DNA of 64,000 nt from a virus, in the IMG/VR virus record IMGVR_UViG_3300009177_000720; one strand, 5' to 3'. A program made the translations under genes and the position numbers. How positions within the stretch are numbered: the first letter of the stretch is position 1; each line of letters begins with the position of its first letter. Below the pieces are notes generated by a model, which saw only the letters and a program-made list of their open reading frames with translations, made no database searches and was not told the origin of the DNA. Shown here piece after piece: positions 28,600-57,060 of this stretch.

Positions 28600-29067
28600 T
28601 CAAGCGCACGGATCAATGTAAAAAATTTCCTTAGCCTTGGACCTGGCGTAGTTTACGCAGTTTCCCGTACCACCTGGTGAACCATCCCACACCGCAATCA
28701 ATTGATCACAGCGGTCTACCATCCACTCATTTCGAGTTTGCATTTTCCAGGCAGCATAACCACCTTCGTTAACAACAACTCTTTCGGTAGCTAGCTTGAT
28801 AAGAGAGCGGTACGTTTTTTGCGAAGCCTGAGGCCAAGCTGACTCTTGCCCCTCAAAGGGGACTGCTGCCACAAAAGGAATACCCAGTTTATGAGCAATG
28901 TTAGCTGCCCATTGATCTACACCTAGGGCCATACCAGAGATTACCTTCTCTGGTTTTAGTTCTCTGAGTGCTTTATCAATCTCTTGACAAACATAGAGAT
29001 AAGTTGGGTTAGGTAGTTTATACCCGCCCAACTTATCCGGTCTATGTCCAGTGAATGCAACAATCAT
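28600..29067 (-). CDS. SLOG family protein (DUF1273/YspA-like)
   Basis: AFTGHRP, ISGMALGVDQWAA, RNEWMVD, GGT.NCV.YA. Confidence 0.88.
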   Translation of the reverse strand: MIVAFTGHRPDKLGGYKLPNPTYLYVCQEIDKALRELKPEKVISGMALGVDQWAANIAHKLGIPFVAAVPFEGQESAWPQASQKTYRSLIKLATERVVVNEGGYAAWKMQTRNEWMVDRCDQLIAVWDGSPGGTGNCVNYARSKAKEIFYIDPCA

Positions 29068-29417
29068 CTGCTGTAACACTTAGAACAGATGGGGTCACCT
29101 GCGTTATGTCCATCCATGACCCAATTGTGGTCGCATTCTGCTTCCTCTTTGGAGTCTAGGCTGGATAATGTTCCCGCTTCTTCTGCCTCAATTAACCTCA
29201 TGAACTCATCTCTAAGTTCCTGAGATTCATTATTTCTTTGAATATAGAAGAGTCCAATGGTCTGGCCACCAAGGGCGCCCAGTACTTCATACTTCATCTT
29301 GACCTTGCCATGAACGAAAGTATTGAAAGCCGCAGCCATCCCTACAACTTCGTCTTCATTAGCAAATGTCAGAACTACTGGAAGATTCACCAGAACTTCT
29401 TTTGGTTTGAATTTCAT
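29064..29417 (-). CDS. hypothetical protein
   Basis: ORF. Confidence 0.6.
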   Translation of the reverse strand: MKFKPKEVLVNLPVVLTFANEDEVVGMAAAFNTFVHGKVKMKYEVLGALGGQTIGLFYIQRNNESQELRDEFMRLIEAEEAGTLSSLDSKEEAECDHNWVMDGHNAGDPICSKCYSR

Positions 29418-29635
29418 TTTAGAGATTCCTTATATTTTTTGAGACAGGACTTATATGCTTTATCTTGCTTATTAAGATAAAATAAAGCAACGTACCCATA
29501 ATCACTTTCACCTTGAATTTCGGTGAATTTGAGCTTGGGTTTACCGCTCAATTCATTAATTCTGTCTACGAACTCATAAATTTGATGATAATCATCAAAA
29601 TGCATAGTACATGGTACGTTTAATGATATTTTCAT
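29414..29635 (-). CDS. hypothetical protein (weakly similar to the neighbouring ORF)
   Basis: ORF; ..NVPCTMHF..K.KF resembles ..NLPVVLTF..K.KY of 29064..29417. Confidence 0.55.
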   Translation of the reverse strand: MKISLNVPCTMHFDDYHQIYEFVDRINELSGKPKLKFTEIQGESDYGYVALFYLNKQDKAYKSCLKKYKESLK

Positions 29636-29636
29636 A

Positions 29637-30353
29637 TTAAACCTCAATGATTTGATACGTAACAGCCGCGTTGCTGACCAACATACCATTACGGACGGAC
29701 AGCCCATGAGCTTCATGAATATGGCCGCACAAATATGTAGCGGGCGTCATATCCTTACTAATCTTATAGTCAAGGGCATTGGCCATAACGGAATTGCCGA
29801 GTATTTGGTTACCATATGAAAGATCTAAACATTGATAAATTGGAGCGTGACAGGCTAAAATATCTACATAAGTAGAATTTAGAACTGGCACTAGTTTATC
29901 AATTTCATCCTGCATTTCCATAACGTTTCTTTCATAGTTCCAAGTATTACCACCAATAGCTGGGACATACGGGAATCCATAAAAATTAACGCCTTGATAC
30001 GTGACAATTTTATCTGTTAGATCAATAGCTTGAATTCCTTCTGCATTGAGCAGCGCTTCCATCTTAGCAGGATGGACAAAATCATGGTTACCCAAAACAA
30101 AAAGAAATGGATGGCCCTGAAGCTGTTGCTTGAAATCACTAATGTGATTCTCTAGCCACTGCATCTGAAATACAGCTTCCTGAACTTTGTTCCCTACCAT
30201 AACATGATGGCTATTCGGGAAAAGATCTCCCGTATGAACCACGACATCATAGCGGCCATGAAGACGAGGAAACCCACCATGGGTATCGCTTACATGACAA
30301 AGTCTCATCTTAAATTTCCTTACAAGAGCATCCGATACGCGCTTAATCTTCAT
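29637..30353 (-). CDS. calcineurin-like metallophosphoesterase
   Basis: SDTH, GD, GNHD, H.P, GHIHE. Confidence 0.9.
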   Translation of the reverse strand: MKIKRVSDALVRKFKMRLCHVSDTHGGFPRLHGRYDVVVHTGDLFPNSHHVMVGNKVQEAVFQMQWLENHISDFKQQLQGHPFLFVLGNHDFVHPAKMEALLNAEGIQAIDLTDKIVTYQGVNFYGFPYVPAIGGNTWNYERNVMEMQDEIDKLVPVLNSTYVDILACHAPIYQCLDLSYGNQILGNSVMANALDYKISKDMTPATYLCGHIHEAHGLSVRNGMLVSNAAVTYQIIEV

Positions 30354-30730
30354 CGTTTCATCCTTAGTGGAAGTCTAGTCCACCAATCACATCCGGCCTG
30401 AGGAACTGACGTATATCCCCAATATCCAGAGTTGTCTTCAGTAGGGACGGCTGGGGCACGCCAACCAATCTGATCTGTACGACTTCCATAATGATCTGTA
30501 TACATTCCGTCTTCCGCAACTGCAAATCCCGGTTGGGCTGCCGATTTGACGAAAGCAGAAGTAACTTTTGGATTGTTTTGGCTTTTGACCGCACAATCAA
30601 CACATTCTAAAAGAATATCCCCACATGGAAACCCACCGTTTTCACGCCACAATTTACAATTGGTGGCGCCGCAACCACGACATTTATAGTCGCTGGGAAC
30701 TGATGTGGAAGAATAATCTACAATTTTCAT
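30350..30730 (-). CDS. hypothetical Zn-binding protein
   Basis: CRGC...CVDC. Confidence 0.6.
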   Translation of the reverse strand: MKIVDYSSTSVPSDYKCRGCGATNCKLWRENGGFPCGDILLECVDCAVKSQNNPKVTSAFVKSAAQPGFAVAEDGMYTDHYGSRTDQIGWRAPAVPTEDNSGYWGYTSVPQAGCDWWTRLPLRMKR

Positions 30731-30930
30731 TCTAATTCTGCTCTAATACTAACTCCATCAACAACTGGAGCAATATTTTTTCTTGTAAAATTATCTAGTT
30801 TCTTAACTAAAACTAGTACCGAATAGCCGTCAGACTCCGACATCACTGCACTAGAACTATACCACGAGTACTGAGAAAGTTTCATCTTGAGCGCGATACG
30901 AACTTGATTTGCCTCTTTGAAAGTAGCCAT
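30727..30930 (-). CDS. hypothetical protein
   Basis: ORF with GAGGAG SD. Confidence 0.65.
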   Translation of the reverse strand: MATFKEANQVRIALKMKLSQYSWYSSSAVMSESDGYSVLVLVKKLDNFTRKNIAPVVDGVSIRAELE

Positions 30931-30940
30931 GATTGTCTCC

Positions 30941-31552: not shown

Positions 31553-31582
31553 GAAAATAAAGGCCCGCACAAAAGGCGGGCC
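31553..31582 (-). terminator. intrinsic terminator
   Basis: GGCCCGC/GCGGGCC hairpin plus TTTATTTT on the minus strand. Confidence 0.7.
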
Positions 31583-31607
31583 CAAGTTGAGACGAAAGTA
31601 CTTGTTA

Positions 31608-32411
31608 TCAAAGTCCGCGATTTTTGATCGCAGTACTAAGTAACTGATAGAGCTTGAAGGGGTCAACACAAGATAAACCTGCTTGCTGCCCATCATTCAA
31701 TTCAATAACAATCCATTCACCTGAAACAGCTTGTCCAACATCAATGGTATAGAAATTTGAATTGTCTCCAACTCTTTCGATAACATCCTGTAAAAACTCA
31801 CGAGGAACTTCCTCGGGAGAGGGTGAACAACCTATATCATCGATATAATTTTGCCAATAGTACCCGCCACACAATAGCTGCCCATAGGCAACAAAGAAGC
31901 GAAATTCCTTTGTCACTGGCATACCATTGACACCATCTAGGTACTTGACAAGCGGCACATATTGGCGGATGTACAGCTTTTGATGGCCCAGAAGACTATC
32001 ATCCGCCAATCGATTGGCAATCATAATAGCATCTGTTTTGGTTTCGGCATACATATCCCTTAACCAATTGTGCTTACGAGAGTTAGTTTCTCCCTTTAGA
32101 ACAAAAGGTCCCTTCTCAGGCAGGTCTTCCAAACTACGCCAAGTTCTTGGTGTGAGTCGCTCCAAGTCGACAACGTAATTGCCAAGGTCAGCGATGTAAA
32201 GGTGTTGATGATAGTTATTAATTAACTTAGCACCAACATATTCAATGTCTTTAGCCTGGTCTGCGTAGAAAGGCCAAAGTGAATATCTACCTACCACCAA
32301 ATCACCTTCTTGAATAGAAGGTCGGCGATCGGTGCAGGTAAAGAACCAGCTTGCAGCTTCTAGTTCTTCCTTTTCAAAATCTGAACCTCGATACAAAATT
32401 ACATGTCTCAT
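31608..32411 (-). CDS. ATP-grasp domain protein (R2K/DUF4343-like)
   Basis: FVLKG..NSRKH, EFRFFV, FYTIDVG, WIVIELNDGQ. Confidence 0.75.
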   Translation of the reverse strand: MRHVILYRGSDFEKEELEAASWFFTCTDRRPSIQEGDLVVGRYSLWPFYADQAKDIEYVGAKLINNYHQHLYIADLGNYVVDLERLTPRTWRSLEDLPEKGPFVLKGETNSRKHNWLRDMYAETKTDAIMIANRLADDSLLGHQKLYIRQYVPLVKYLDGVNGMPVTKEFRFFVAYGQLLCGGYYWQNYIDDIGCSPSPEEVPREFLQDVIERVGDNSNFYTIDVGQAVSGEWIVIELNDGQQAGLSCVDPFKLYQLLSTAIKNRGL

Positions 32412-32426: not shown

Positions 32427-32903
32427 TTACTTACGAGGGAAAAGCGAAGGCTGGCTATTGAACAACTGCGCCCAAAGGTCACGAGTTGGAAGAGCCGGAG
32501 GAGCCACGGGGGTCTGAATCGGAGCAACCACAGGATTGACGGTAACCGTTCCATTGCTGGAGGCAGTAACCGAAACTGGAGCCGGAGTTGCTTGAACAGT
32601 GCCTTGCGCTCTCTTCTGAGCATCATATTTGTTATCCAGGTCCCAAGAATCGGAAAGAGGATGGTAAAGCAAGGCTTCTGCCTGAGAACCATCCGCCAAT
32701 TGAACTTGAATTGGTGTACGTGCCCAACCAGCAGACTCAATGTCCGAGGTAAACATACCACGAACAAAGTCTCTCACCTCACGATGACGAGCAAAGGGAA
32801 GGGTCATCTTCACCTTATTGCTGACATCCAAGGCGGTGAACAATTCACCACTCTGCACAAAACCCTGAACAACCGAACGAACTTCACTCTCTAAATTTGC
32901 CAT
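32427..32903 (-). CDS. hypothetical protein with Pro-rich tail
   Basis: ORF with AGGAG SD and own promoter. Confidence 0.7.
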   Translation of the reverse strand: MANLESEVRSVVQGFVQSGELFTALDVSNKVKMTLPFARHREVRDFVRGMFTSDIESAGWARTPIQVQLADGSQAEALLYHPLSDSWDLDNKYDAQKRAQGTVQATPAPVSVTASSNGTVTVNPVVAPIQTPVAPPALPTRDLWAQLFNSQPSLFPRK

Positions 32904-32975: not shown

Positions 32976-33407
32976 CTACTCCCCTTGCAGCTCTTTCCTG
33001 ACACGCATCAGAACTTGGCCGAGCATATTCTGACCAGTCCCATCCTTACCACATCCCCAAAAAGAATCAACTGGAGAATCTTCCACCAGAATCTCTATCC
33101 CAGTCTTCATCAGATCTCTACGCAAGTCGGCATGTTGTAAGAACTTAGCCATTACGCATTCATACATAACATCAACTTTAACCTTATCCCAGTTGGGACG
33201 CATAGTAACCTTCTGTCCTAGATCGCGAGCCTCTCGTGGAGTCTTAGCCGACCAGATGGCATGTTGTTCTAATGTATCTAAGGTCTTTTGAGATTGATAC
33301 GGCGCTTCAACGTTGTTCCACCAACGACCATAAACAAACATCCTGGCTCTCTTAAAGTTGTTTAAGAAACCAAAAGGAGCATTGCTTTTGTAGAATTTGA
33401 TAGTCAT
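32976..33407 (-). CDS. NADAR (YbiA) family protein
   Basis: FLNNF, VEAPYQSQK, R.NWDKVK, AKFLQH, LVEDSP.DSFWG, GQNMLG.VLM.VR. Confidence 0.92.
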   Translation of the reverse strand: MTIKFYKSNAPFGFLNNFKRARMFVYGRWWNNVEAPYQSQKTLDTLEQHAIWSAKTPREARDLGQKVTMRPNWDKVKVDVMYECVMAKFLQHADLRRDLMKTGIEILVEDSPVDSFWGCGKDGTGQNMLGQVLMRVRKELQGE

Positions 33408-33886
33408 TCATCACCTTCACGCTGGTAAATAACTACTTTTGCCCCTTGAGTAGATTCAATGTGATTGGCAAAGTTAGTAATATTACCAAGATAGTTTTCC
33501 CAGATTCCACCCGCAGCCCCACAACCAATTCTCCATGGGAAAGCAACGCTTTCTAGATTAGGAAGTTGAGCTATACGGAGCAGGCATTTATAGAAATAAT
33601 TCTGCCTGGTTAAGATTCCATCAAGAGTGGAATTGGGATATTTTGATTTGCCAGGATAATACTGGCCTAAAAGAGCAATGACGTATCGCTGGTCTTGACC
33701 GTTCCCTTTAACAATAATGGTTCCGGGTTTGTCATGAGTAGTTCTGCCGGTGTAAACATCGGCATAAGGATACCTAGCGAATACGTCCTTTGCTAAATGT
33801 GCGGCCCGATTGGTCACACAATTGCACTGATGACATAGATACTTTTCTTTGGCATCAAAAAGATCACCAGTGACTATTTCAATCAT
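33404..33886 (-). CDS. macrodomain protein (ADP-ribose binding/hydrolase)
   Basis: VTGDLF, HQCNC, VAFPWRIGCGAAGG.W. Confidence 0.88.
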   Translation of the reverse strand: MIEIVTGDLFDAKEKYLCHQCNCVTNRAAHLAKDVFARYPYADVYTGRTTHDKPGTIIVKGNGQDQRYVIALLGQYYPGKSKYPNSTLDGILTRQNYFYKCLLRIAQLPNLESVAFPWRIGCGAAGGIWENYLGNITNFANHIESTQGAKVVIYQREGDE

Positions 33887-34062
33887 TTAAAAGCCTCAGA
33901 TATCTTGTCTAAGACAGATTGCTCCACACGAACAATGATAGCATACCGAACACCTTCGAAACCGGCAATATCATCTCTATGATACTGTGCCTCTGTTTCT
34001 GGATACGGTCCTGCCGTATGTTCACCTGGAAAACCTTCTACCTTATACTTGACTAAAAACAT
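33883..34062 (-). CDS. hypothetical protein (59 aa, not in ORF track)
   Basis: Hand-translated MFLVKYKVEGFPGEHTAGPYP...ISEAFK; fills the gap with ATGA overlap. Confidence 0.6.
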   Translation of the reverse strand: MFLVKYKVEGFPGEHTAGPYPETEAQYHRDDIAGFEGVRYAIIVRVEQSVLDKISEAFK

Positions 34063-34063
34063 A

Positions 34064-35002
34064 TTACCTCGGAGTGTGAATCACTGGAAGAGATCTTCCA
34101 ATGGACGGCTTAGCTAGGGCCGGGTTGTTTTTCATCCAGCTCTGAACGAACCACAACTGACCACAGCCGCCACCAACGTCATCTTGTCCAGCCGGATCAA
34201 ACATTCTAGTGCTGAATCCGCGCTCCAACAAGAGACTCTGAAAGTTAGCAGCCAACTCACGTTGACGGGCGTTAGCGGCAGCTACTGTTTCCTCTCTTTC
34301 GCAAACCACCGAAATGGTTGCTTCCCAGATTGCTGGGTCAAACAACTTCTCCAAACGATCTGCATCGTATGGGGTTGAATTCTTTTCATGTGCGCAGTAG
34401 TTGAAGAACGGTCTACGACCAACTTCATACGCCCAGCGCTTACCATGCTCGGCAATTTCAGCCAAGGAAAGCTTTGCCTTGAAGGGGATCAAGGCATTAC
34501 GAGCTTCATCCGTACTCTCGTGAACCGAGAATTGCAGTCCTACCTTACTCACCTCTTTCGAAATGTCAATGACCGGCTGGTAATCAACACGAGGGGCAGA
34601 AGTAGAAATCAACAAAGCTGCGCCCGGATACAACACGTGCAGCTTGCGAATCGCTGGATTCAGCTCTTTAAGATTGAGAAGTGGCTCGCCCATGCTCATA
34701 AACATGATTTGCATACGTTCCACCTTAGAAGCATCAATTCCCTTATCGGCAAAGAGGTGCTCCGTCTGAGAAACAATCTCGTCCGCTGTCAGGGAGCGAA
34801 CGAAACTATCTCCGGCTCCACAAAAGCGACACCCAATTGGGCAACCGCTTTGCGTAGAGCAACACACAACAGTTCTGGCTTCGAAGGTAGGATACTTGTA
34901 GAGAACAGATTCTGCTACAGCGTTATCCTTTTCAAAGACATACTTGAAAACGTTTTCGTCTGAACTAGGAATACACCTAGTTTTATTCCACAATTGTTCC
35001 AT
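34064..35002 (-). CDS. RlmN/Cfr-like radical SAM methyltransferase (paralog 1)
   Basis: STQSGCPIGCRFC, MSMGEP, SVH, DDVGGGCGQL. Confidence 0.85.
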   Translation of the reverse strand: MEQLWNKTRCIPSSDENVFKYVFEKDNAVAESVLYKYPTFEARTVVCCSTQSGCPIGCRFCGAGDSFVRSLTADEIVSQTEHLFADKGIDASKVERMQIMFMSMGEPLLNLKELNPAIRKLHVLYPGAALLISTSAPRVDYQPVIDISKEVSKVGLQFSVHESTDEARNALIPFKAKLSLAEIAEHGKRWAYEVGRRPFFNYCAHEKNSTPYDADRLEKLFDPAIWEATISVVCEREETVAAANARQRELAANFQSLLLERGFSTRMFDPAGQDDVGGGCGQLWFVQSWMKNNPALAKPSIGRSLPVIHTPR

Positions 35003-35010: not shown

Positions 35011-35340
35011 CTACGTGAGTGAAGTACAAAGCCACCAACCAACGGCAGCATTTGCAATATTGTTTTCATCAGCCCAAGTTAAAAGTTGAGCATCCCATTC
35101 TTCTGTGGCAATCAATTCTTCTTTGTTAATGAAAGAAGAATATGACTTCCACGAAACAACTTGAGACAAACTTCCTTTGATGACAATGAAGGTTTCAATT
35201 TCACCAGAGTATGCGTCCCCTGCCCACATCATTTCCAAGTACTTGGGCAGTTGAACTCTACCTTCATTAAGATCCTCTAACAGTTTTTCATCTGTTAAAA
35301 GGAATCCATATCCAAGGTCGGCATGAAAATCCGTACTCAT
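35011..35340 (-). CDS. hypothetical protein
   Basis: ORF. Confidence 0.6.
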   Translation of the reverse strand: MSTDFHADLGYGFLLTDEKLLEDLNEGRVQLPKYLEMMWAGDAYSGEIETFIVIKGSLSQVVSWKSYSSFINKEELIATEEWDAQLLTWADENNIANAAVGWWLCTSLT

Positions 35341-36833
35341 TACTTTGCCTGCGTTTCAAATTCGATGATGTAACGAAGCGCATGCTGCTGCTCGGGACCA
35401 GTTGGGCTGTAAGTAATCAATTCGTCATTGAGAACTCCGCCACCAGCTCGGGCAAAAACAGAGTGTGCAGGAGCAATGCTCTTCTTGGTGTAGAAGTGCG
35501 AGCCATTAGCATACTTGTAATTGCCGTAAGCGACATCTCCAAGGAATAGGTAAGCCGTTTTGTTGGTACCCTGCGCCCAATACGACCCACGAACATCGCA
35601 ATAGTTGATGGACTTGGTACTATTGGTTGCCCAATAGATACCGTCACCATACATACTACCAGCGTGAGCAACACCAGAAGGACGAATCAGAAGGCCCTTA
35701 GTGGTGATACCAATCATGTTAGCACGACGGGTACCGTGCCAGCCAGGAGCAACGTTGGCCTGCTGGTAAAGTTCCTGCAAAGCCTTAGGAACATCAGGGC
35801 GAGAGGCAACCAACTTGGCATAAGTCTCAGAAGGAGAATGCTTTCCACACTCCTTAGCAATGCGCTGCGCGGTCTCAATGAAGTTTTTATCTTCATTGTT
35901 GCGCTTGAGACGGAAAATCTTGTGAACCTTGAGCTTACCAAGGCCCTGGTGATTGTAGGCGCGGGTATCATGAACCATCTTATCAATCCACTTGAAGGTA
36001 GGATCAGTAGGATCAATCCATTCAAGGTCGGCATTGAGGGTGGCATACTGCGAATCAACCGCGCTCTTCTTGGAAATAACGGCCTGAACGTTCTTAGCAT
36101 CAGCAAAAACGTCAAGAATGTCGAGAGCCTTATCAATCTTGGGGTCTCCATCGAAACGAAGTAGGTCCGCATTGATACGATGACCTAGAACGTGAGGGAT
36201 ATTGGAGTAATAAGCGCTGGTCAACTTGTTCAATTCAGAAACATCAGGGCTCTTACTGTGAACAATTGTGCGAGCCTCTTCAAGAATTTGCTTGGCCTTA
36301 TCAATCTGATCAAGCGAAAGCTGTCCAAGTGGACACTTCTTAGTGTCAAGGTTCAACTCAATGAACTCCTGAGTAACGCCGAACCAGGTACGAACAAGAT
36401 CCTGCACTTCCGGATGAAGCTTGCTGGCAGCTTGCGGCTCTTCTTTGACCTGTACTCCGGCTTTCTTGAGCGATTCCACAGTCACAGAAGTATCAACCTT
36501 AGTCTTACCAACCTCCGAACCAACGTCCGACTTGGCAAGCTTGACTTCAACGTAACCCTTCTTGGTCTTGCTCTTTACAATTTTCTCTGCTTCCGTTTCA
36601 GCTTCGCTCTGGTTTCCACAAGAACGATATTCTTTTGCAGGAGATGGGGCGCCCACTCGTCCATACTGAGTAAACAAGAAAAATTGATTCTTGTCTGACT
36701 TGACAACTTCCAAGTTGTAATACTTGTTGTTGTTATTGACAATATCAGTAAAGTTCAAAGTCCATCGCTTGACAGACTCAACGACTTTAATGTTATTGAT
36801 GACGGACGGATCCTTAATTACTTGAAGCGCCAT
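35340..36833 (-). CDS. WGR-domain poly(ADP-ribose) polymerase-like protein
   Basis: NNNKYY..YGRVG (WGR); PLGQLS, LTSAYYSNIPH (regulatory domain); WHGT, GSMYGDGIYWA..STKS.NY, NDELITY (H-Y-E triad). Confidence 0.9.
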   Translation of the reverse strand: MALQVIKDPSVINNIKVVESVKRWTLNFTDIVNNNNKYYNLEVVKSDKNQFFLFTQYGRVGAPSPAKEYRSCGNQSEAETEAEKIVKSKTKKGYVEVKLAKSDVGSEVGKTKVDTSVTVESLKKAGVQVKEEPQAASKLHPEVQDLVRTWFGVTQEFIELNLDTKKCPLGQLSLDQIDKAKQILEEARTIVHSKSPDVSELNKLTSAYYSNIPHVLGHRINADLLRFDGDPKIDKALDILDVFADAKNVQAVISKKSAVDSQYATLNADLEWIDPTDPTFKWIDKMVHDTRAYNHQGLGKLKVHKIFRLKRNNEDKNFIETAQRIAKECGKHSPSETYAKLVASRPDVPKALQELYQQANVAPGWHGTRRANMIGITTKGLLIRPSGVAHAGSMYGDGIYWATNSTKSINYCDVRGSYWAQGTNKTAYLFLGDVAYGNYKYANGSHFYTKKSIAPAHSVFARAGGGVLNDELITYSPTGPEQQHALRYIIEFETQAK

Positions 36834-36844: not shown

Positions 36845-36873
36845 ATCGTATTCGGATGACTGTATTGAGTCAA
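36845..36873 (-). promoter_or_regulatory. sigma70-like promoter TTGACT-N17-TACGAT
   Basis: Directly upstream of the PARP SD. Confidence 0.55.
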
Positions 36874-38440: not shown

Positions 38441-39300
38441 ACAAACATTCCACAAGAAGCTTTCACATCAAACCCAACACGCGGAATCATCTGCACCTTA
38501 GTGCTAAATCTAAATCTATCTGTAATTAGATTTAGATTACGATCAATAACTTCTTCTGAACTTTCAACTCCTTGGTCAGGAGATGCCGTATTGTATCGTA
38601 CTAAATTGAATTCACAAATAAGATTGTGTCTTTCAATAGCATCGCAAACATTATTTACCTCTTCGACTGAGTCATTCTCTCCAGCAATGAAAGCATAATG
38701 AATTTTTACTATTTTCTTAGAGAAATCCTGATAATCCCTCAACATTCTTAGGGCCTCATCAGAGTCCATAGCGGCCGGCATCCAATCTTTACGCCACTTT
38801 GAATTAGTAGAATAGATAGAGTAGTAGATTGTTGGGTTGATGTAATTGAAAATGTCTGACAAAGATTTCTTCAAAGATACTGGCATGATAGTAGAGATGT
38901 TGAATTTGGCTGGAAGACCTTCTCCCTTGGCAACTTGTCCCAGCTTTTGCAACAAATCATCGCCCGAATCTAACAAAATCTTGTTAGCTAGCGGTTCACC
39001 TCTTGCCATAAAGTTGTAATGCATGTATTTCGCGGGCTTCGTTTCCTTACGATAGTGCTTAAAGACTTGAATGGCCTGTGCCACAAAGTCATTATGACTA
39101 GAATCAATGAAGGATGTCTGGTCGGTTGCGGTCAAGTGACAGAAAGTACAGCCACGATTGCACCCCGTCTGTGAAGATAAGTAGGCAATAAAGTAATCGT
39201 CACACTTCCTAACGAAGCGTGACTCTAGAAATCCAACTAACTGTTCTTCAACAAAGTTGACCGAATGATCTATTTGAGAATTCAAAACCTTTAAGGACAT
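38437..39300 (-). CDS. RlmN/Cfr-like radical SAM protein (paralog 2)
   Basis: SSQTGCNRGCTFC, FMARGEP, G.NDS, NLVRYN, DVKASCGMF. Confidence 0.82.
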   Translation of the reverse strand: MSLKVLNSQIDHSVNFVEEQLVGFLESRFVRKCDDYFIAYLSSQTGCNRGCTFCHLTATDQTSFIDSSHNDFVAQAIQVFKHYRKETKPAKYMHYNFMARGEPLANKILLDSGDDLLQKLGQVAKGEGLPAKFNISTIMPVSLKKSLSDIFNYINPTIYYSIYSTNSKWRKDWMPAAMDSDEALRMLRDYQDFSKKIVKIHYAFIAGENDSVEEVNNVCDAIERHNLICEFNLVRYNTASPDQGVESSEEVIDRNLNLITDRFRFSTKVQMIPRVGFDVKASCGMFV

Positions 39301-41174: not shown

Positions 41175-41215
41175 GTTCAATCACCTATAACGGGCGGGGC
41201 AAGTGCGCTCCAGTT

Positions 41216-41948: not shown

Positions 41949-42260
41949 TTAGTCTTCTTCTGGTTCCTCGGGTTCTTCTCTAAACATTTGTACGGCTTGG
42001 TCGTAAGTCAAGCTCAATTTCTTGAGCAAAAAACGTACCATATCACGATCAGTGACCGATTCTTTTCGACAAAGAATACAAGTAGTAATTTCTTCAAGAA
42101 AATCATCATCAGATGTTTCATCATCTGACTCTTCTTGAATCACTTGTCTACCACCGCATTTATTAGAGCAAAAATGCTCTCCGCATTCACAGCTAAAATA
42201 ACTACCGCAATCTGGAAAATTGTACCCACAATTGGCGCAAGTATAGAAATCAACACCCAT
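41949..42260 (-). CDS. Cys-rich hypothetical protein
   Basis: Multiple CxxC motifs. Confidence 0.6.
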   Translation of the reverse strand: MGVDFYTCANCGYNFPDCGSYFSCECGEHFCSNKCGGRQVIQEESDDETSDDDFLEEITTCILCRKESVTDRDMVRFLLKKLSLTYDQAVQMFREEPEEPEED

Positions 42261-49101: not shown

Positions 49102-49650
49102 CTAATATTCTAACTCTTCAAAATTGACTAAAGAAGCAAATTTCCAATCCACTAAACCTGCACTTAGATATGGTTTTTTATTTGCCCTGCGATCGACCAC
49201 CGCCAAAATACCCTTTACCTCAAACCCGGCATCTTCAATGGCTTTAGCTGCCGCAATAGAAGATCCGCCTGTCGTCACCACATCTTCTACCAAGACAACT
49301 TCTTCATATTGAGTCATACTCGGGCGCTCTAATAGCTCCTTGGTTCCATGCTCTTTGGCTGCTTTACGAACATGGATGACATCCAAATCAATGGGAGAGT
49401 GCATCGCTACAATGCTGGCCAAATGGCAACCACCTAAGGCTACACCAGCAACTGCTTGGAAAGGTGCAAACTGTTCTACCATCTTATCGAAGAGGAGTTT
49501 CGCTAAAAGCTTATGAACCCGACCATGTAAAGCGGTTTTCTTTACATTAACATAGATATCGCTTTTAGCGCCTGAGGCCAAGGTAAACTCTTCACCCTTT
49601 TGAAGACTGAAAAGATTTAGCCAAGAAATCAGTTGTTGGCGATCATCCAT
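49102..49650 (-). CDS. pyrE: orotate phosphoribosyltransferase
   Basis: FTLASG.KS..Y, RK..KEHGT, LVEDVVTTGGS, VVDR. Confidence 0.92.
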   Translation of the reverse strand: MDDRQQLISWLNLFSLQKGEEFTLASGAKSDIYVNVKKTALHGRVHKLLAKLLFDKMVEQFAPFQAVAGVALGGCHLASIVAMHSPIDLDVIHVRKAAKEHGTKELLERPSMTQYEEVVLVEDVVTTGGSSIAAAKAIEDAGFEVKGILAVVDRRANKKPYLSAGLVDWKFASLVNFEELEY

Positions 49651-50569
49651 TGCTAGCTCTCGGAAAGAAAGATGTCCCTGACCTATTGTAAAGCTGACTA
49701 TCTAGTTCAATCAGTTTATCGTAGTCTTCAACTCCCCGAGCGATTGTCTCATTAATAGCCTTCATACCTAGCTTTGCGCCAAACAACGCACCAACAATAG
49801 CTGCCGTTGTATCGGTATCACCACCAGCTTTGATGGCCGCTACAATAGCGTCATGATAGTTGCTGAATTTAAGAAAACAGTATAGAGCGGATGGAACCGT
49901 CTCTCGTACATCTGCCTTGGTACCTAGTACCCGGAGAGCTTGCTGCGGTGTAATGTACTCCGAGTCGATCAAAGAGTTTAGACTATAAATAGTGCTCTTA
50001 ACCTTGCTATTGGGAAGCTTTTCCCAAATCTTCTCAAGGAGATTATCCGTATTGTTATTGACAGCATAAGCAGCAGCCAAGGCAATGGCAATGGAGCCTG
50101 CCTCAGCATCTTCTGATGCATGGGTAATAGCACTATCAATCTTACAGATATTAACCAAAGAATAAAGGTCGTTACGGAAGTAGACTCCAAAAGGAGCGGC
50201 CCTCATGGCAGTTCCATTTCCCATTGACCCCGCAATTCCCGATTCGCTCCAATGCTTACCGGCTTGAAGATTCTGAACGGCCATAAGAGTGGTTTTTCCA
50301 TAGCCTCGGGCTCGACCAGAAACCAACCATTCCATATAGCGAGCGGCTAAATCATCAGGATTAAACCCTTTGTTTTTGATTAAAGATTCAGCAACCATGA
50401 GGCTCATCTGAGTATCATCAGAGTACTGTCCTGGCAGCAGTTTATGATGTTCGCTACCTAAGTAGGTCTTACCATCCCATTCAACAAGCCCTTCAAAATT
50501 ACAAAGTTTCTTTTCGAAAGGAACACCTAAGGCGTCCGCGACTGCTGTTCCAAGTAATACGTTACTCAT
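49643..50569 (-). CDS. ADP-ribosylglycohydrolase (DraG/ARH family)
   Basis: AVADALG, YSDDTQM, GNGTAMR, ITH, GGDTDTTAAI.GA. Confidence 0.93.
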   Translation of the reverse strand: MSNVLLGTAVADALGVPFEKKLCNFEGLVEWDGKTYLGSEHHKLLPGQYSDDTQMSLMVAESLIKNKGFNPDDLAARYMEWLVSGRARGYGKTTLMAVQNLQAGKHWSESGIAGSMGNGTAMRAAPFGVYFRNDLYSLVNICKIDSAITHASEDAEAGSIAIALAAAYAVNNNTDNLLEKIWEKLPNSKVKSTIYSLNSLIDSEYITPQQALRVLGTKADVRETVPSALYCFLKFSNYHDAIVAAIKAGGDTDTTAAIVGALFGAKLGMKAINETIARGVEDYDKLIELDSQLYNRSGTSFFPRASNG

Positions 50570-50577: not shown

Positions 50578-51528
50578 TCAATTTGAATTTGCAGATACGC
50601 CATTTGTTTTTGCGGGGGTTGCCTTAGCAATGGCATCTAAATCAATGATTGGAACATTTTTCTCATTAAATGCCTTGAGAACTGTTTTTACACTAACATT
50701 AACTTTAGAGTACTGGGACATAACAGAATTGCTATGAAATTGGAACTTAGGTTCCTTACAGTTAACAGTATCGGTTACCCATGAACCTTTATAAGAAGTC
50801 GGATCTTTCATCTTTCCAGTAACAGGATCTTTATGATATTCCTTATGCTGCAAGTAAAGTCTAGTTCCGGATTTATAGAGGATGAAATCAATTGCTAGAT
50901 AATCTTCAATATGCTTTTTCCCGGAGGGCAAAGTAGAAGAAATTGATGTAACTGCTTGAATTACGGCTGGAACCGCTGCGGTTTTATTGTTTACCTTGCT
51001 TAATGGATCGCTAAAGGCACGCAAATGACTGGTAACTTCTTCCAAAAGAGAAGCGTAATTTCCCATTACAATGTTGATTGTTGCCGGCTGGTCATCTTTT
51101 AAAAGGACGAATCCTTTTTTAAGGTTATCTAACCTTGATTCTTGTTTTTGAAGAATCTTCTGTAATTCATGGGTCTTTTTGAAAGACTCTTCATGAGCGT
51201 GAATAAATTCACTTTTATTTGCAAAAAACTTCTTATCTTTCTTATAATAAGAATCTTTGCAGAAATTTTCCAAAGACAAGATAAAAGATTGAGGAGCGGC
51301 AATAACTATAAGGCTCTCAACGTCTTTAAGTTCAAACTTAACTGGGACATACATCGCCTGTGATGGGGCAGCATTTGCACTTTTAAGAAAATCTCCTCTA
51401 GTATCTCTAGTAGCTGCATCTTTGGCTATACCGTATTTATAGGCGATGGTATAAAAATCAACATCCTCACCTACATGACGCCCAATAATTCTTCTCAGAT
51501 AAAACTCTTGAATAGATTCCATGTTCAT
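50578..51528 (-). CDS. hypothetical protein
   Basis: 316-aa ORF. Confidence 0.7.
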   Translation of the reverse strand: MNMESIQEFYLRRIIGRHVGEDVDFYTIAYKYGIAKDAATRDTRGDFLKSANAAPSQAMYVPVKFELKDVESLIVIAAPQSFILSLENFCKDSYYKKDKKFFANKSEFIHAHEESFKKTHELQKILQKQESRLDNLKKGFVLLKDDQPATINIVMGNYASLLEEVTSHLRAFSDPLSKVNNKTAAVPAVIQAVTSISSTLPSGKKHIEDYLAIDFILYKSGTRLYLQHKEYHKDPVTGKMKDPTSYKGSWVTDTVNCKEPKFQFHSNSVMSQYSKVNVSVKTVLKAFNEKNVPIIDLDAIAKATPAKTNGVSANSN

Positions 51529-52100
51529 TATCCAATCTTTAACTGGCCTTCTAGCAACATTAGCAATACAAAGGCATGACCCATTTTTCTATTTGGATCA
51601 TTAATTACCTGATCGAATGTGAGACCGAGTGTACGATGATTATAACCATCAAAATCCCAAAGGTAAAGATCGATCTTTTCCTCGGACATCTTTTTTAATT
51701 TGGAAAATGCAGAAGTTTTCTGAACGGCCCTTGCGTACAAAGGAATATAAATTTTGGAACGAGCTTCTGTGTAGGTAAACTTCTCACCATCCCAATAGGA
51801 GTAGAGCGGCTTAGTATCTCTACCCATAGGGTATCGGTGAGCCTTTATGTCATTCCAGCCATCTTGGGCCCACTTGAAATAGCGCTCTCCTACCGAACCA
51901 TCTTCTTCAAGATAGTACTCATAGACTTTAGAATACTGCCAAGCGTTCTCTACATTATACGAAGTGTAACCCCCATATAGATCTACTGGGCCAGCAAAGA
52001 ATGGACTAAGCCCTCGACTCCAATTATCAGAACGAGAGGTAGTATTAATAACAATAGAACCCTCCGGGACTTGGTACCCAGGTCCAATTATATAAATCAT
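51528..52100 (-). CDS. DUF6939-like / NADAR-related protein
   Basis: LSPF, NVENAWQYSKVY, Y.EAR..IY.P.Y, DFDGY, H..VL. Confidence 0.55.
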   Translation of the reverse strand: MIYIIGPGYQVPEGSIVINTTSRSDNWSRGLSPFFAGPVDLYGGYTSYNVENAWQYSKVYEYYLEEDGSVGERYFKWAQDGWNDIKAHRYPMGRDTKPLYSYWDGEKFTYTEARSKIYIPLYARAVQKTSAFSKLKKMSEEKIDLYLWDFDGYNHRTLGLTFDQVINDPNRKMGHAFVLLMLLEGQLKIG

Positions 52101-52516: not shown

Positions 52517-53650
52517 TTACTTTAAAATGTGAGGAATAAACCTGCCCAAGTTATTAGTAATTAAAGATTTTGACTCTCGAATGCCTATCCCGGCAGACTC
52601 ACCATCAATAACCCAACTGCCCAACACAGGGTAATTATCGTCAAATTTGGGCAATAAAGCCAAATCTTGGTAAATATACCCCTCTTCACCGTAGGTTCCA
52701 TCAGTACTATCAAGCACCTCAATTTCAGTGTTAATCGTAATGTTGGCGCCCTCCCTAGAATAGAAAGGCTTCTTTACATGCCACGGCAACTTAGAAGGCT
52801 CAAAATGAGCTTCCAAAAGATTAGGGTGCCCAGGATTCAATTCCCATAGAATGGGGAGAATTCCCTTATTGGAAAGGATCATTTTCCAGGCTGGCTCGAT
52901 CCAAAAGGTATTCTCCATAGTCTTAGCAATATGCTGACCGAATTCATCCTTCAGTAGCCACTCCCAGGGGTAGAGTTTGAAAATGTTTTTCATTGAAAAC
53001 AAGTCAACATCGACAAAGAGATTGTCTACACTATCCCAACCAATATGCTCAATGGGCAAGGTCTTTGCTTCAAGCCCGGCCTGAACTGCCGTCTCCTGAA
53101 GGTAGGAAACTGTCATATAGTCTTCATAGGTATCCATATAAGCCAAAAACAAAGAACCAGGATTCAAATAATCTCGTAGCTCTTTCCATTTAGCAATGAG
53201 ACGCTCGTGAATGGAATTGAACTGGTCAGCATCCTTAAAACAGTCCTGCTGCCAATACCACTGGATAACTGCGGCCTCCAAAAGAGAAGTTGGAGTATCT
53301 GCATTGTACTCCAGCATCTTAGGCTGCCCCTCACCGTTATAAGCAAGGTCAAAACGTCCATAGATGGCAGGAGTCTCATTGTTCCAGCTATGTTCAATAA
53401 GGGGAATCGCCACCTCGGGAATACGCAACTCCTTGTAGCGTTTGTGGTCAATGATATGCTGGACTGCCTCTAAACACATCTGATGTAGGGCATTAGTAGC
53501 TGACTCTAGCACTTCAACTTCTCTTGAAGAAAACTCGTAATAAGCCGATTCGTCCCAATAAGGGACGCCATCAGCAGTGTGATAAATCATACCCTGAGAT
53601 TCAACCGTCTTTTCCCAATTAGGACGAACACTTTTCTTAATGCGCTTCAT
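52517..53650 (-). CDS. glutathionylspermidine synthase family ATP-grasp protein (YgiC/YjfC-like)
   Basis: YWDE, GRFDL, LEYNADTPTSLLE, FKLYPWEW, KKP..SREG.N. Confidence 0.93.
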   Translation of the reverse strand: MKRIKKSVRPNWEKTVESQGMIYHTADGVPYWDESAYYEFSSREVEVLESATNALHQMCLEAVQHIIDHKRYKELRIPEVAIPLIEHSWNNETPAIYGRFDLAYNGEGQPKMLEYNADTPTSLLEAAVIQWYWQQDCFKDADQFNSIHERLIAKWKELRDYLNPGSLFLAYMDTYEDYMTVSYLQETAVQAGLEAKTLPIEHIGWDSVDNLFVDVDLFSMKNIFKLYPWEWLLKDEFGQHIAKTMENTFWIEPAWKMILSNKGILPILWELNPGHPNLLEAHFEPSKLPWHVKKPFYSREGANITINTEIEVLDSTDGTYGEEGYIYQDLALLPKFDDNYPVLGSWVIDGESAGIGIRESKSLITNNLGRFIPHILK

Positions 53651-54318: not shown

Positions 54319-54321
54319 AGA

Positions 54322-55737
54322 TTATTCCTTTGCATCAATGTATTCATCGAGGCGGGCCTGGTTTCTAACCTCGTTGAAGTTAGTTTCGAAACGGATTTCG
54401 CCGTCCTCATATACCGTGCGCATCACCGAGTTTTTGTGGGCAATTTCGCTTTCAGCCAGGGCAACTGTGGTATAACCACGAACCTCATCAAACACAAGGT
54501 CCAAACGCCCGGCCTTGCTTGCTTTCCCAGGATCGGTAACCGGATCCTTAAAGACATCAACCGATTTATCGCCAATGAAGATGTGGCTGCACTTCATAGC
54601 AAATTTCTGAGTGTCACGATTGAGCTGCTGAAGAAGAGCACCACCCATACCAAAAGCGATATTGCTTGCGCTATACCCATTGATAAGCAGGTTGTCCAAA
54701 ATCTCCTTGATAGAGATCTCATTGATACCATCTCCTTGAATAACTCTGACATTATCCAAAACTTTGAATCCCTTCTTGTTGACGGTAGATCCAAACTTCT
54801 CTTCAAGCAACTGAACGCACTTCAGCACGACAGTGGGCGGATGTCCCGAGTCAGGACGGATAATCACCACTGCACCCGAGTCTCTTACCTCTTGGCGCAA
54901 TGCACCTCCCCACAAGTTGGTGCAAGCATTCCACAAGTCATAGGAGTCAGAAACGCAAGCAACCAAGGCCCCCGGCTTGGCAAACTGCCTAAGCATATTG
55001 CGGTAAGCCTCAACCTCATTCTCCTTACCCCACGAGGTAATAGAGCTGTGTTCCGCAGCAGGAATGCTAAATCCGGCCATTGGAATGTTGTAGTATTCAT
55101 TAGCCATCAAAACGCCTGCAACGGTGTCACTTCCCATGAAGTTGACCAAGTGAGAAGCTCCGCCAATCATGGCCGATTCCTGGCTGCTTACACCACGAGA
55201 ACCGAAGTCATGTAGCTTGAAATTGATTTCACCATTTGGATCATCAGCCGATTTACCAAGGGCATCCATAATGATCTGTCTAATGCGGTTACTCCTGGTT
55301 GCTACGGTAATAGGATACCAGACCCTAAGTAGCATGGTTTCAATCCAAGAGACCACCCAAAAGACCTTTGGGTCAGTCGATTCAATGCTAACAAGCACGT
55401 TATGAGTAGGAATGATGCTGCCTTCCTGAGGCGCCCTAATACGCACCGGAATCTTGCCGCCTAACTCTTTGGCAATATACATCCAGCCTTCGTAGTTGAA
55501 GGGCTCGCCATGGGCCGCAAAAAGCTCCTTAGCCTTTTCAACCTCTTCCACCGTTACTCGATGGGTAAGGTACTCCTTCAAGTAGTATTGGAGTCCAAAG
55601 AAAACAGTCCTATCATACTCTCCGCCACGACTCTCGATATACGAGAACATGCTGGTGGTACCCGGTGGATACTGCTTGTAATGGGAAACTTTGTAACTGT
55701 CGGTATCAAACAAATAACTGAAACGATTGGTTTTCAT
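54322..55737 (-). CDS. nadV: nicotinamide phosphoribosyltransferase (NAMPT)
   Basis: TDSYKVSH, LHDFGSRG, PAAEHS, VSDSYD, IRPDSG, IQGDG, FGMGG. Confidence 0.95.
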   Translation of the reverse strand: MKTNRFSYLFDTDSYKVSHYKQYPPGTTSMFSYIESRGGEYDRTVFFGLQYYLKEYLTHRVTVEEVEKAKELFAAHGEPFNYEGWMYIAKELGGKIPVRIRAPQEGSIIPTHNVLVSIESTDPKVFWVVSWIETMLLRVWYPITVATRSNRIRQIIMDALGKSADDPNGEINFKLHDFGSRGVSSQESAMIGGASHLVNFMGSDTVAGVLMANEYYNIPMAGFSIPAAEHSSITSWGKENEVEAYRNMLRQFAKPGALVACVSDSYDLWNACTNLWGGALRQEVRDSGAVVIIRPDSGHPPTVVLKCVQLLEEKFGSTVNKKGFKVLDNVRVIQGDGINEISIKEILDNLLINGYSASNIAFGMGGALLQQLNRDTQKFAMKCSHIFIGDKSVDVFKDPVTDPGKASKAGRLDLVFDEVRGYTTVALAESEIAHKNSVMRTVYEDGEIRFETNFNEVRNQARLDEYIDAKE

Positions 55738-55741
55738 AATT

Positions 55742-55754
55742 ATACTCTCCGTAT
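55742..55754 (-). promoter_or_regulatory. SD-containing hairpin AUAC-GGAGA-GUAU before nadV
   Basis: 4-bp stem, 4 nt before ATG; covaries with the copy at 57065-57077. Confidence 0.55.
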
Positions 55755-55757
55755 TTC

Positions 55758-56054
55758 TTACTTCTTCTCTCCCTGAGAAGATTCAATTCTTTCACACAAA
55801 ATGTCTTTATGTTCGGCCAGCCTAATACGAGCGCTAGCCCCTTTGTAGGGCACTCTCACAAAAGCTTTGGAGACGGGGATATCGCATGGACTACCCATAT
55901 CTGAAATTCTATAAGAAGTATTCTCTACATGAACCTTAGCCCTGGTCTTATTACCATTTGGCCACTGAACACGAATCCATTCACCATCTTTAAATGGCTT
56001 ACCATCCAATTGGTCAATCTCACACCAGTTACTATAAGTAATAACCTTTTTCAT
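55758..56054 (-). CDS. hypothetical protein
   Basis: ORF between the NAD genes; likely start MKKVITY. Confidence 0.6.
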   Translation of the reverse strand: MKKVITYSNWCEIDQLDGKPFKDGEWIRVQWPNGNKTRAKVHVENTSYRISDMGSPCDIPVSKAFVRVPYKGASARIRLAEHKDILCERIESSQGEKK

Positions 56055-56061
56055 AGTACCC

Positions 56062-57060
56062 TCAGAATTTATTGACGAAGTGGGAAATGATATGGAAATG
56101 ATCTTCAAAGAACTCTGACTCCCTAGTAGCCAGGTCACTCAAAGACATCCACCACGCTTTGTCGGCATCATCGGAACCCTTCACAATAGGAAGTGGCCCA
56201 TTACCGAGGTCAATCAGAAATGCATGGGTAATTGTTCTGCCTCTCAAAGAGCGCTCAGGGTAATCAAACACCTTCTGCTCAACGATTGCCTTCTCCAATT
56301 CATCCTTGGAAATCTTAATTCCAGTTTCTTCCTTAAGTTCTCTTAGGGCACCTTCTTGAGTCGTTTCATACTGATTCAAAAATCCGCCAGGAAGAGCAAT
56401 CAATCCTCTGCCAGGGCTACCTTTACGACGGACAGTGAGAACGTGACCACTTCTAATCACGATACAATCCACGGTCACAAAGGTAGGAGGGAAAGGAGCG
56501 CCATCCCAAGAAGCACGATAATTCTTGACGAAATCGTATTCTTCCTTCAAATTTTTGAAAGAGGTGGTCTTCTTAAAATCTTCAAGATATTGAACAATAC
56601 CAGTCGACACATGATTCTTGTAACCATTGTCGTGCGTAAAGTAAAGGCCGCGAATAGCAGTCGCATGCGGCATTCTATCAAGATTTCTCATCTTGAAAAA
56701 CTTCCACTGCGGGAAGTAACTAATTTCTCCGATGTCACAAATCTTGCTATCATCAACGCCATCGGTAGCATCGTAAACAAGCTGTTGAACTTCGGTCAAC
56801 CAACGATTGTTGGTGTACCAGTAATCTCTAACATACAGGAACTTGACGTGCGCCTTTTCCTCATCAGAGAGAGCTGAAAGAATCATCTCTTGACGCTGCT
56901 CGGCAGTCCAAGGATTCTGAACGTTGGGCGCCTTATTCGCGCTGCCAATCACGACCAGAACGGTCTCTGCAAGATTAAGTGCCTCTCTAACAAGCTCATG
57001 GTGTCCATGGTGGAAAGGCTGAAAACGACCAATACAAACGCAATAATCAAATGACTTCAT
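56062..57060 (-). CDS. nadM: bifunctional NMN adenylyltransferase / ADP-ribose pyrophosphatase (NadM-Nudix)
   Basis: IGRFQPFHHGH, NPW...R, HATAIR; Nudix box PGG....E...GALRELKEETG. Confidence 0.94.
   Translation of the reverse strand: MKSFDYCVCIGRFQPFHHGHHELVREALNLAETVLVVIGSANKAPNVQNPWTAEQRQEMILSALSDEEKAHVKFLYVRDYWYTNNRWLTEVQQLVYDATDGVDDSKICDIGEISYFPQWKFFKMRNLDRMPHATAIRGLYFTHDNGYKNHVSTGIVQYLEDFKKTTSFKNLKEEYDFVKNYRASWDGAPFPPTFVTVDCIVIRSGHVLTVRRKGSPGRGLIALPGGFLNQYETTQEGALRELKEETGIKISKDELEKAIVEQKVFDYPERSLRGRTITHAFLIDLGNGPLPIVKGSDDADKAWWMSLSDLATRESEFFEDHFHIISHFVNKF

Follow-up and report, generated by a model that had tools for sequence, protein, structure and literature searches.

A PARP gene recurrently linked to DNA ligase within the NAD+/ADP-ribose gene set of an uncultured megaphage

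Introduction

WGR-PARPs are known as sensors of DNA breaks. PARP-family ADP-ribosyltransferases (ARTs) have been described in phages, as has a full network of NAD+ and ADP-ribose (ADPr) domains (PMC4245714, PMC7824862, PMC9503650). PMC9503650 also describes how, in large phages, Macro, NADAR, SLOG, Nudix and NadV/NadM occur together, reads this mainly as counter-defence, and assigns Macro plus NADAR to about half of all jumbo phages and ARH to only ~5% of them. Here, we analyse a stretch of viral DNA of 64,000 nucleotides (IMG/VR record IMGVR_UViG_3300009177_000720, hereafter the window) whose positions 28,600 to 57,060 hold a PARP gene together with genes for ADP-ribose removal and NAD+ salvage. 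A preliminary description made from the sequence had proposed that these genes form a single circuit in which ADP-ribose is written, erased and recycled.

Several components of such gene sets have been characterised in other systems. Bacterial proteins of WGR-PARP_reg-PARP_cat architecture are DNA-activated poly(ADP-ribose) (PAR) synthases in vitro (PMC5966428), and NARP2 function has been established experimentally for the gene pair of Vibrio phage KVP40 (10.1101/2024.02.11.579819). Eraser families have known counter-defence roles (PMC11125620, PMC11825919), and orphan antitoxins directed against DarTG include NADAR proteins, which counteract DarT1, and DarG-like macrodomains, which counteract DarT2 (PMC11825919, PMC11543638, PMC13309987). 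Guanine-ADPr is hydrolysed by all NADARs tested, and the protection that they confer in cells is toxin-specific (PMC11125620). Because the NAD+/ADP-ribose toolkit of jumbo phages has already been mapped by comparative genomics, with counter-defence by NARP2, NADAR and macrodomains shown experimentally, the window taken as a catalogue is a rich but ordinary example.

Results

The phage PARP and its linkage to DNA ligase

The minus strand carries every gene between 28.6 and 59.6 kb of the window in tight packing, and all features located below within this interval lie on that strand. The gene at 35340..36833 encodes a protein of 497 amino acids in which Pfam identifies a WGR domain (1.6e-18), a PARP regulatory helical domain (PARP_reg, 2.9e-19, residues 137-261) and a PARP catalytic domain (5.7e-20). 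A phmmer search against the Protein Data Bank (PDB) returned human PARP1 (2.9e-34) and PARP2 (1.7e-27), whereas identity to other phage and bacterial PARPs is ~25-30%. Residues His-366, Tyr-400 and Glu-471 as well as Gly-58 and Arg-59 are invariant in an alignment of the clade with six distant phage PARPs; His-366 and Tyr-400 align with the WHGSR and GIYFA motifs of PARP1, and Glu-471, which lies in an N-D-E motif, is invariant among 14 phage PARPs. As the Pfam match to the catalytic domain spans only profile positions 4-126 of 199, the assignment of the catalytic glutamate rests on the family alignment. The WGR motif is present as a Y-G-R variant, the form found in most bacterial PARPs (PMC5966428). 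With all three domains present and the H-Y-E triad intact, the WGR-PARP proposed in the preliminary description is confirmed; judged by its domains the protein belongs to the PARP1-3 type, and it is probably an active writer. In the literature searched, no paper was found that characterises any phage PARP.

A gene 2.5 kb upstream of PARP (39300..41180), earlier described as an NAD-consuming ligase, is identified by Pfam as LigA, an NAD+-dependent DNA ligase that carries HhH and BRCT domains. In the clade genomes LigA is a single-copy gene and always lies within 8 kb of PARP. The same neighbourhood recurs in other viruses. In LR756511, a phage of 595 kb, an ATP-dependent ligase comes 384 bp after PARP and ARH four genes further on, and in Cellulophaga phages a single gene separates PARP from an ATP-dependent ligase. 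Further cases came from viral contigs screened more widely for a PARP alignment. In locus L125 the stop codon of PARP coincides with the ligase start. L137, L141, L149, L150 and L155 have an ATP-dependent ligase 0.4-1.3 kb upstream of PARP, and LigA is found 3.2-3.7 kb downstream of PARP in L128, L131, L133, L135 and L160 and 0.5 kb upstream in L148. Linkage is also present in Paenibacillus medicaginis (L088), Clostridium tagluense (L051) and a contig labelled Kofleriaceae (L040). The linked ligases were confirmed by Pfam as either PF01068 with an OB domain or full LigA. The ligase is present in single copy in the checked records (107-595 kb), the exception being LR756511, where another PF01068 match, a weak one, is found at 17 kb from PARP.

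PARP lineages were defined as clusters at 50% identity over 60% of length; a clustering with 45% identity and 120 residues as limits put almost all sequences together and was not used. Of the 19 viral lineages, 6 have a ligase no more than 7 kb away from PARP, for which a chance rate of ~7% per lineage gives a binomial probability of ~1.4e-3. Within one PARP cluster, the neighbour is LigA in some members and an ATP-dependent ligase in others. Closely related PARPs adjoin either ligase type, which is the expected pattern if the function rather than one particular gene is linked to PARP. The conserved partner of the phage PARP is a DNA ligase and not the macrodomain/NADAR pair considered below. 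No report of a PARP-ligase linkage was found in the literature searched.

Two features of these loci were seen in passing. In L149 (934-3468), the ligase adjacent to PARP is apparently split by a homing-endonuclease ORF (open reading frame) of GIY-YIG/NUMOD3 type that forms an in-frame fusion with the ligase OB domain. In the unrelated contigs L128, L131, L133 and L135 (~3.0-3.1, 11.4-11.9 kb), Thg1, PARP and LigA occur within 9 kb, with Thg1 4 kb upstream of PARP, an arrangement that echoes the order Thg1 ... LigA ... PARP in the window.

The ligase neighbourhood and the domain structure both bear on the function predicted for jumbo-phage PARPs in PMC7824862 and PMC9503650, namely that of a host-takeover effector comparable to Alt, ModA and ModB of phage T4. 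Such a PARP would attach poly- or mono-ADP-ribose to host proteins, for example RNA polymerase or translation machinery, and the erasers and salvage enzymes would be unrelated counter-defence genes. ARTs are indeed common as host-modifying enzymes in myoviruses, and the PARP gene is located in an auxiliary, probably early, block with tRNA and translation genes. On the other hand, the invariant Gly-Arg of the WGR domain and the regulatory helical domain suggest an activation that depends on nucleic acid, a recurrent ligase neighbourhood is unexpected for an enzyme of this kind, and head or packaging genes are not linked to PARP. A host-takeover role is distinctly unlikely on this evidence.

The gene run from PARP to a terminator

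PARP, a 109-amino-acid ORF, a radical SAM gene, a 59-amino-acid ORF, the macrodomain gene and the NADAR gene follow each other head to tail, with stop and start codons that overlap or nearly abut. The start of the 109-amino-acid ORF (35011..35340, from the ORF list) overlaps the PARP stop; it has no match in Pfam or PHROG, and a homologue is present in two related loci only. The radical SAM gene (34064..35002; Pfam Radical_SAM) encodes an RlmN/Cfr-like protein and is an accessory insert in the run. It scored 101 bits against TIGR00048, for which the cut-off is 290 bits, and is for this reason considered a distant RlmN/Cfr relative rather than RlmN itself. It is located between PARP and the macrodomain gene only in the window phage and two near-identical contigs (L013/L024). 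An apparent gap of 177 bp between the radical SAM and macrodomain genes is occupied by the 59-amino-acid ORF (33883..34062), recognised from the sequence and its translation; it had been hidden by an ORF filter of 60 amino acids, and its stop codon overlaps the macrodomain ATG. The run through PARP, the RlmN-like gene, macrodomain and NADAR is uninterrupted, as had been claimed.

Downstream of NADAR, a conserved 158-amino-acid ORF (u158; 32427..32903) is found by synteny after either PARP or NADAR across the wider clade. Leads from the ESM Atlas are weak and winged-helix-like, so that a winged-helix N terminus is possible. The last gene ahead of the terminator encodes an R2K-clade ATP-grasp protein (31608..32411; Pfam R2K_3, 6.3e-22). 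The terminator is a strong hairpin resembling an intrinsic terminator (31561..31583), with eight pairs of which seven are G-C and a T-run, and is the probable end of the unit comprising PARP, macrodomain and NADAR; from the packing, these three genes probably form one transcription unit. At the upstream end, a promoter had been placed at 36845-36873. The motif TTGACT-17-TACGAT exists there and matches the consensus at 9 of 12 positions, but a sigma-70 scan found 40 such 9-of-12 matches in 14 kb, compared with 26.5 +/- 5.4 in shuffled sequences. Being one of 40 matches of equal quality, the motif does not stand above chance and is no evidence of a transcription start.

Further RlmN/Cfr-like genes were noted near PARP. 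A second radical SAM gene of this kind lies at 38437-39300 of the window, an RlmN-like homologue directly follows PARP in Klebsiella phage 05F01 (L034:7268-8197), and another is found ~4 kb from PARP in L161 (near 2734). The link is recurrent.

ADP-ribose erasers and SLOG

The product of 33404..33886 (160 amino acids) has no Pfam or NCBIfam match at E 0.01. Its only sequence matches are phrog_335, annotated as phosphatase (3.2e-17), and weak hits in the PDB (E 0.17-0.77), whereas the AlphaFold model (AF2, pLDDT 88) matches the TARG1/DarG/Poa1p/BT1257-like structures 4j5s, 5m3i, 6lfq and 2fg1 in Foldseek with a probability of 1.0 and TM scores of 0.66-0.74. By the modelled fold alone, the protein is a macrodomain, as had been proposed. 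Homologues are annotated by JGI as O-acetyl-ADP-ribose deacetylase.

The adjacent gene (32976..33407, 143 amino acids) encodes a NADAR protein (Pfam 2.5e-35, 122.6 bits with a cut-off of 35.1 bits) that aligns with Escherichia coli YbiA (2b3w, 1.9e-22) and retains a glutamate in the last strand (L-V-E), which is the rule for the YbiA subfamily of NADARs (PMC11125620). A second protein, earlier called NADAR-like (51528..52100, 190 amino acids), belongs to DUF6939 (PF22075) and not to the Pfam NADAR family (PF08719). Its sequence gave zero matches in the PDB, and a comparison by hhalign with the clade NADAR profile was weak (E 0.084, N-terminal motif only). Its AF2 model (pLDDT 95), however, superimposes on the solved NADARs 8bat, 2b3w and 8bau with VIA Z scores of 9.6 (154 residues, rmsd 4.2), 6.9 and 6.6, the next chain reaching 2.2. 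The model thus gives the DUF6939 protein a NADAR fold.

The gene at 49643..50569 encodes a full-length ADP-ribosylglycohydrolase (PF03747, 1.6e-71, 241.8 bits, profile positions 2-286 of 287). It had been described as ARH/DraG; the ARH family is correct, and the closest solved relatives in a PDB phmmer search are MJ1187 and ARH3, with DraG more distant, for which reason it is called ARH3-like here. With macrodomain, NADAR and ARH, erasers of three folds are present, in line with the three chemistries proposed initially. The stop codon of ARH is overlapped by the start of a gene for an orotate-phosphoribosyltransferase (OPRT)-like protein (49102..49650; TIGR00336, 114.9 bits with a cut-off of 106.8). 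This gene was considered as a candidate for NARP1 Adps and rejected, as it is a pyrE-type OPRT above cut-off and its match to ribose-phosphate diphosphokinase is weak. For the 316-amino-acid ORF at 50578-51528 the ESM Atlas yielded no usable match. The SLOG protein listed initially is of the YpsA family (28600..29079; Pfam YpsA, 1.7e-18), and its position is kept across the clade.

ARH was found in all five clade genomes searched, and in two unrelated huge phages it is separated from PARP by 5 and 14 kb. A microbial-type PARG (PF10021), in a frame of 280-288 amino acids, occurs in each of the four near-complete clade genomes (G001-G004, the records of L012, L023, L027 and L030); in three of them its distance upstream of PARP is 62-73 kb. 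Its presence in each of these genomes strengthens the idea of a reversible (poly)ADP-ribosylation run by the phage itself.

NAD+ salvage genes

A nicotinamide phosphoribosyltransferase (NadV/NAMPT) is encoded at 54322..55737 (Pfam NAMPT_N and NAPRTase; NF006629, 636 bits with a cut-off of 405), and a bifunctional NMN adenylyltransferase/Nudix ADP-ribose pyrophosphatase (NadM-Nudix) at 56062..57060 (Pfam CTP_transf_like and NUDIX). The latter scored 407.9 bits with NF003791, just below the cut-off of 409 bits, and both of its Pfam domains were found. Only one small ORF (98-126 amino acids) separates the two genes, and a second strong terminator-like hairpin (57225-57198) lies just upstream of NadM-Nudix. 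By their domain content the adjacent enzymes are a NARP2-type salvage pair. The Nudix, NAMPT and NMNAT listed in the preliminary description are accordingly all present as domains, but Nudix and NMNAT are one gene and not two. NAMPT occurs in three of five clade genomes, and the other two keep PARP without it. NARP3 (PnuC and NadR) was judged not to be relevant to the window.

Conservation of the arrangement

The order LigA ... u99 - PARP - (variable insert) - macrodomain - NADAR - u158 ... SLOG is kept in ~25 clade loci. Since their PARPs are 66-91% identical and the whole region is syntenic, this order is no independent evidence that the genes are coupled. The spacing between PARP and the macrodomain gene varies from ~0.1 to 4 kb among relatives. 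In the more distant loci L115, L116, L119 and L040 (60, 55, 45 and 47% PARP identity), LigA and/or a u158 homologue is retained, and a search with clade-built profiles and Pfam did not find NADAR or macrodomain genes after PARP. Among five other PARP phages, NADAR is present in four and Macro in four, at distances of 5 kb to several hundred kb and never adjacent to PARP. The co-occurrence check thus places macrodomain and NADAR beside PARP only in the inner clade. Bacterial PARP loci were examined for a PARP-eraser operon: Macro was found in only 2 among 124 neighbours of 22 loci, and NADAR, ARH and PARG are absent from the 25 families listed around these loci, which comprise every family found in at least two neighbours.

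No ligase is close to the chromosomal PARPs of Spirosomataceae and other Cytophagales (L052-L087) in the bacterial set. Adjoining proteins include pPIWI_RE_Z (5 of 124), WYL (4) and WCX (4), a context typical of defence islands.

These data bear on the question whether the genes constitute one integrated circuit, in which PARP would write a regulatory mark, macrodomain, NADAR and ARH would be its dedicated erasers, and Nudix, NAMPT and NMNAT would recycle ADP-ribose and nicotinamide. The writer, the erasers, the salvage pair and the packed PARP-macrodomain-NADAR segment all exist as the preliminary description had it; the probable transcription unit ending at 31583-31561, the gene order maintained in ~25 related phages and the additional PARG and ARH of the clade speak for such a circuit, and bacteria have comparable writer-eraser pairs of ART with YbiA and of ART with macrodomain (PMC11125620). 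Against it, the genes are scattered across 28 kb of tRNA, RNA-repair and replication genes, with ~30 unrelated ones in all (PheRS, Thg1, PTH2, a helicase, GSP synthase and others), inserts of variable length separate PARP from the macrodomain gene, and the macrodomain-NADAR pair is not beside PARP in the four loci of 45-60% identity or in any other PARP lineage but one. Two of five clade genomes dispense with NAMPT while keeping PARP. Moreover, the known substrates of NADAR carry base-linked ADPr, and PARPs are not known to make it (PMC11125620), and, according to PMC9503650, about half of all jumbo phages have Macro and NADAR without PARP. The comparative evidence does not favour a single circuit, which is possible but unlikely. 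A modular toolkit is favoured instead, because NAMPT is present in only three of five clade genomes and macrodomain and NADAR adjoin PARP only in the inner clade.

The phage and the surrounding genes

The window is a portion of the auxiliary-gene arm of an uncultured soil/rhizosphere megaphage. A megablast search of 20 kb of the window against 50,697 phage records gave zero matches, so that the phage has no close cultured relative. In IMG/VR there are ~30 syntenic relatives, the complete ones being 432-480 kb, and near-identical DNA occurs in metagenomes of rhizosphere, soil and groundwater from several studies.

Ten tRNA genes lie in the window, the products of which also include Thg1, PTH2 and RlaP. 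Near tRNA arrays are a phage-encoded TyrRS (23409-24638) and a monomeric PheRS of mitochondrial type (42260-43327), which combines a class II core with an FDX-ACB anticodon-binding domain. The segment 423-4017 holds a PHO4 phosphate transporter and a PhoU-like gene, with one PNKP-like kinase-phosphatase gene on either side of them. A SpoT/RelA-type HD hydrolase, probably a small alarmone hydrolase, is encoded immediately upstream of LigA (41266-41946) throughout the clade, and the interval from LigA to PARP contains, adjacent to the second radical SAM gene, one for an FGE-sulfatase (formylglycine-generating enzyme-like) domain protein (37808-38455). Between the salvage genes and the DUF6939/ARH group there is an ATP-grasp protein of the glutathionylspermidine synthase family (52517-53650; Pfam E 1.6e-150).

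Such a neighbourhood raises the possibility that the substrates of PARP and the erasers are the ends of RNA or tRNA, within a block for RNA repair and tRNA maintenance where ADP-ribose would cap or uncap 5'-phosphate ends. Apart from the Thg1, PTH2, PheRS, TyrRS, HD hydrolase, RlaP, two PNKP-like proteins, RlmN-like radical SAM proteins and tRNA arrays of the window, a CCA-adding enzyme adjoins the Cellulophaga PARP, Thg1 is 4 kb from PARP in the unrelated group L128-L135, RlaP is near PARP in L116 and FBKp34, and an RlmN-like gene follows the PARP of a Klebsiella phage. Nevertheless, the ligases found near PARP are genuine DNA ligases, either LigA with its BRCT domain or PF01068 proteins that have an OB domain, the breaks that WGR-PARPs are known to sense are those in DNA, and the tRNA genes may merely share the auxiliary arm. 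An action on RNA ends is improbable.

Discussion

The reading that we prefer, with a probability of roughly 55%, is that of a modular toolkit comprising NAD+ salvage, stand-alone erasers and a nick-sensing PARP with a ligase and its own PAR turnover, rather than one wired circuit. Building on the domain identities, catalytic residues, packing, synteny and recurrent PARP-ligase linkage observed, we infer the enzyme activities, their targets, nick sensing and the assignment of erasers to marks as follows. NAMPT and NadM-Nudix would convert nicotinamide to NAD+ and clear free ADP-ribose; the NARP2 output would feed LigA and PARP, the NAD+ users of the phage, and blunt host defences that deplete NAD+. 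The stand-alone erasers (NADAR, macrodomain, the ARH3-like enzyme and DUF6939), together with SLOG, would strip ADP-ribose marks or soluble derivatives made by either host or phage, with the NADAR-fold proteins and SLOG more probably handling host-made base-linked ADPr or soluble ADPr signals. PARP itself most likely senses nicks or breaks in replicating phage DNA and would modify itself, nearby proteins or DNA ends, acting together with the phage DNA ligase. Its signal would be removed by the clade PARG encoded outside the window, the ARH3-like enzyme and the probably co-transcribed macrodomain.

Several observations weigh against the modular toolkit with its ligase-coupled PARP. Thirteen of the 19 viral PARP lineages, including those of XacN1 and Klebsiella phages, have no ligase within 7 kb, and in the window LigA and PARP are five genes apart. 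The association with ligase is statistically moderate, and replication genes of phages cluster anyway. The tight packing of PARP, macrodomain and NADAR in ~25 related phages matches the look of a dedicated writer-eraser operon. No PARG is among the window ORFs scanned, although synteny would put it ~40 kb past the window end. Finally, the macrodomain family alignment has no invariant lysine, where catalysis involves Lys/Asp in TARG1 and Lys in DarG, a comparison made at the level of sequence.

A more specific form of the PARP-ligase module can be suggested tentatively, as a possible but doubtful extension: a eukaryote-like single-strand-break response on the replicating phage genome, in which PARP recruits or times the ligase, PARG, the ARH3-like enzyme and the TARG1-like macrodomain erase the signal and NARP2 supplies NAD+. 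In this response PARP would sense ligatable nicks and poly-ADP-ribosylate itself or DNA ends, and LigA would be recruited perhaps via its BRCT domain. If true, it would constitute the first repair axis of PARP and ligase to be found outside eukaryotes and would fit the published idea of phage or bacterial precursors of eukaryotic PARPs. More generally, a PARP serving as a nick sensor coupled to ligation would mean PAR-based DNA-break signalling in a bacterial virus and would bear on the origin of eukaryotic PARP signalling.

The eukaryotic counterpart is break signalling by PARP1/2/3 along the PARP-XRCC1-Lig3 axis. The phage protein shares the WGR-helical-ART core, its gene is linked to that of a nick-sealing enzyme, and LigA has a BRCT domain. 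Unlike the eukaryotic system, the phage lacks zinc fingers, a BRCT domain in PARP, XRCC1 and HPF1, and its coupling of PARP to ligase is suggested by gene neighbourhood only. Closer in architecture are the PARP and PARG of Herpetosiphon aurantiacus and Clostridioides difficile CD160 (PMC5966428, PMC4245714), which have the same WGR-PARP_reg-PARP_cat organisation with Y-G-R motif and H-Y-E triad, and a microbial-type PARG (PF10021) in the same genome, as in the clade relatives of the window phage. The window PARP differs in being encoded by a phage, together with an ARH3-like enzyme, a macrodomain, two NADAR-fold proteins and a DNA ligase link.

The salvage genes resemble NARP2 of Vibrio phage KVP40 (10.1101/2024.02.11.579819), in which NAMPT is likewise beside an NMNAT/Nudix enzyme of the bifunctional NadM-Nudix type, whereas the window pair is split by a small ORF and two of five clade relatives have no NAMPT. 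The stand-alone NADAR and the DarG/TARG1-fold macrodomain recall the orphan antitoxins that phages deploy against DarTG (PMC11825919, PMC11543638, PMC13309987). However, the window NADAR is of the YbiA type (Glu) and not of the His-type phage gp30.3/AdfB group, and the likeness of the macrodomain to DarG is at the level of fold.

The nearest relatives overall are the NAD+-ADPr networks of jumbo phages (Iyer, Burroughs, Anantharaman and Aravind 2022, PMC9503650; Iyer et al. 2021, PMC7824862). These papers describe the same domain set (PART/PARP-family ART, Macro, NADAR, ARG/ARH, SLOG, Nudix, NadV, NadM and NAD+ ligase), encoded by stand-alone genes in early or auxiliary regions of large myovirus-type genomes beside RNA-repair genes; a PARP-DNA ligase linkage was not found in the portions consulted. 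In the window, unlike the networks as described there, PARP, macrodomain and NADAR form one tight unit, and the clade has both ARH and PARG. Compared with these systems, the window holds an unusually complete set of a known toolkit kind, and what deserves attention in it is the recurrent position of PARP beside a single-copy DNA ligase of either chemistry, together with the PARG and ARH3-like enzyme of the clade.

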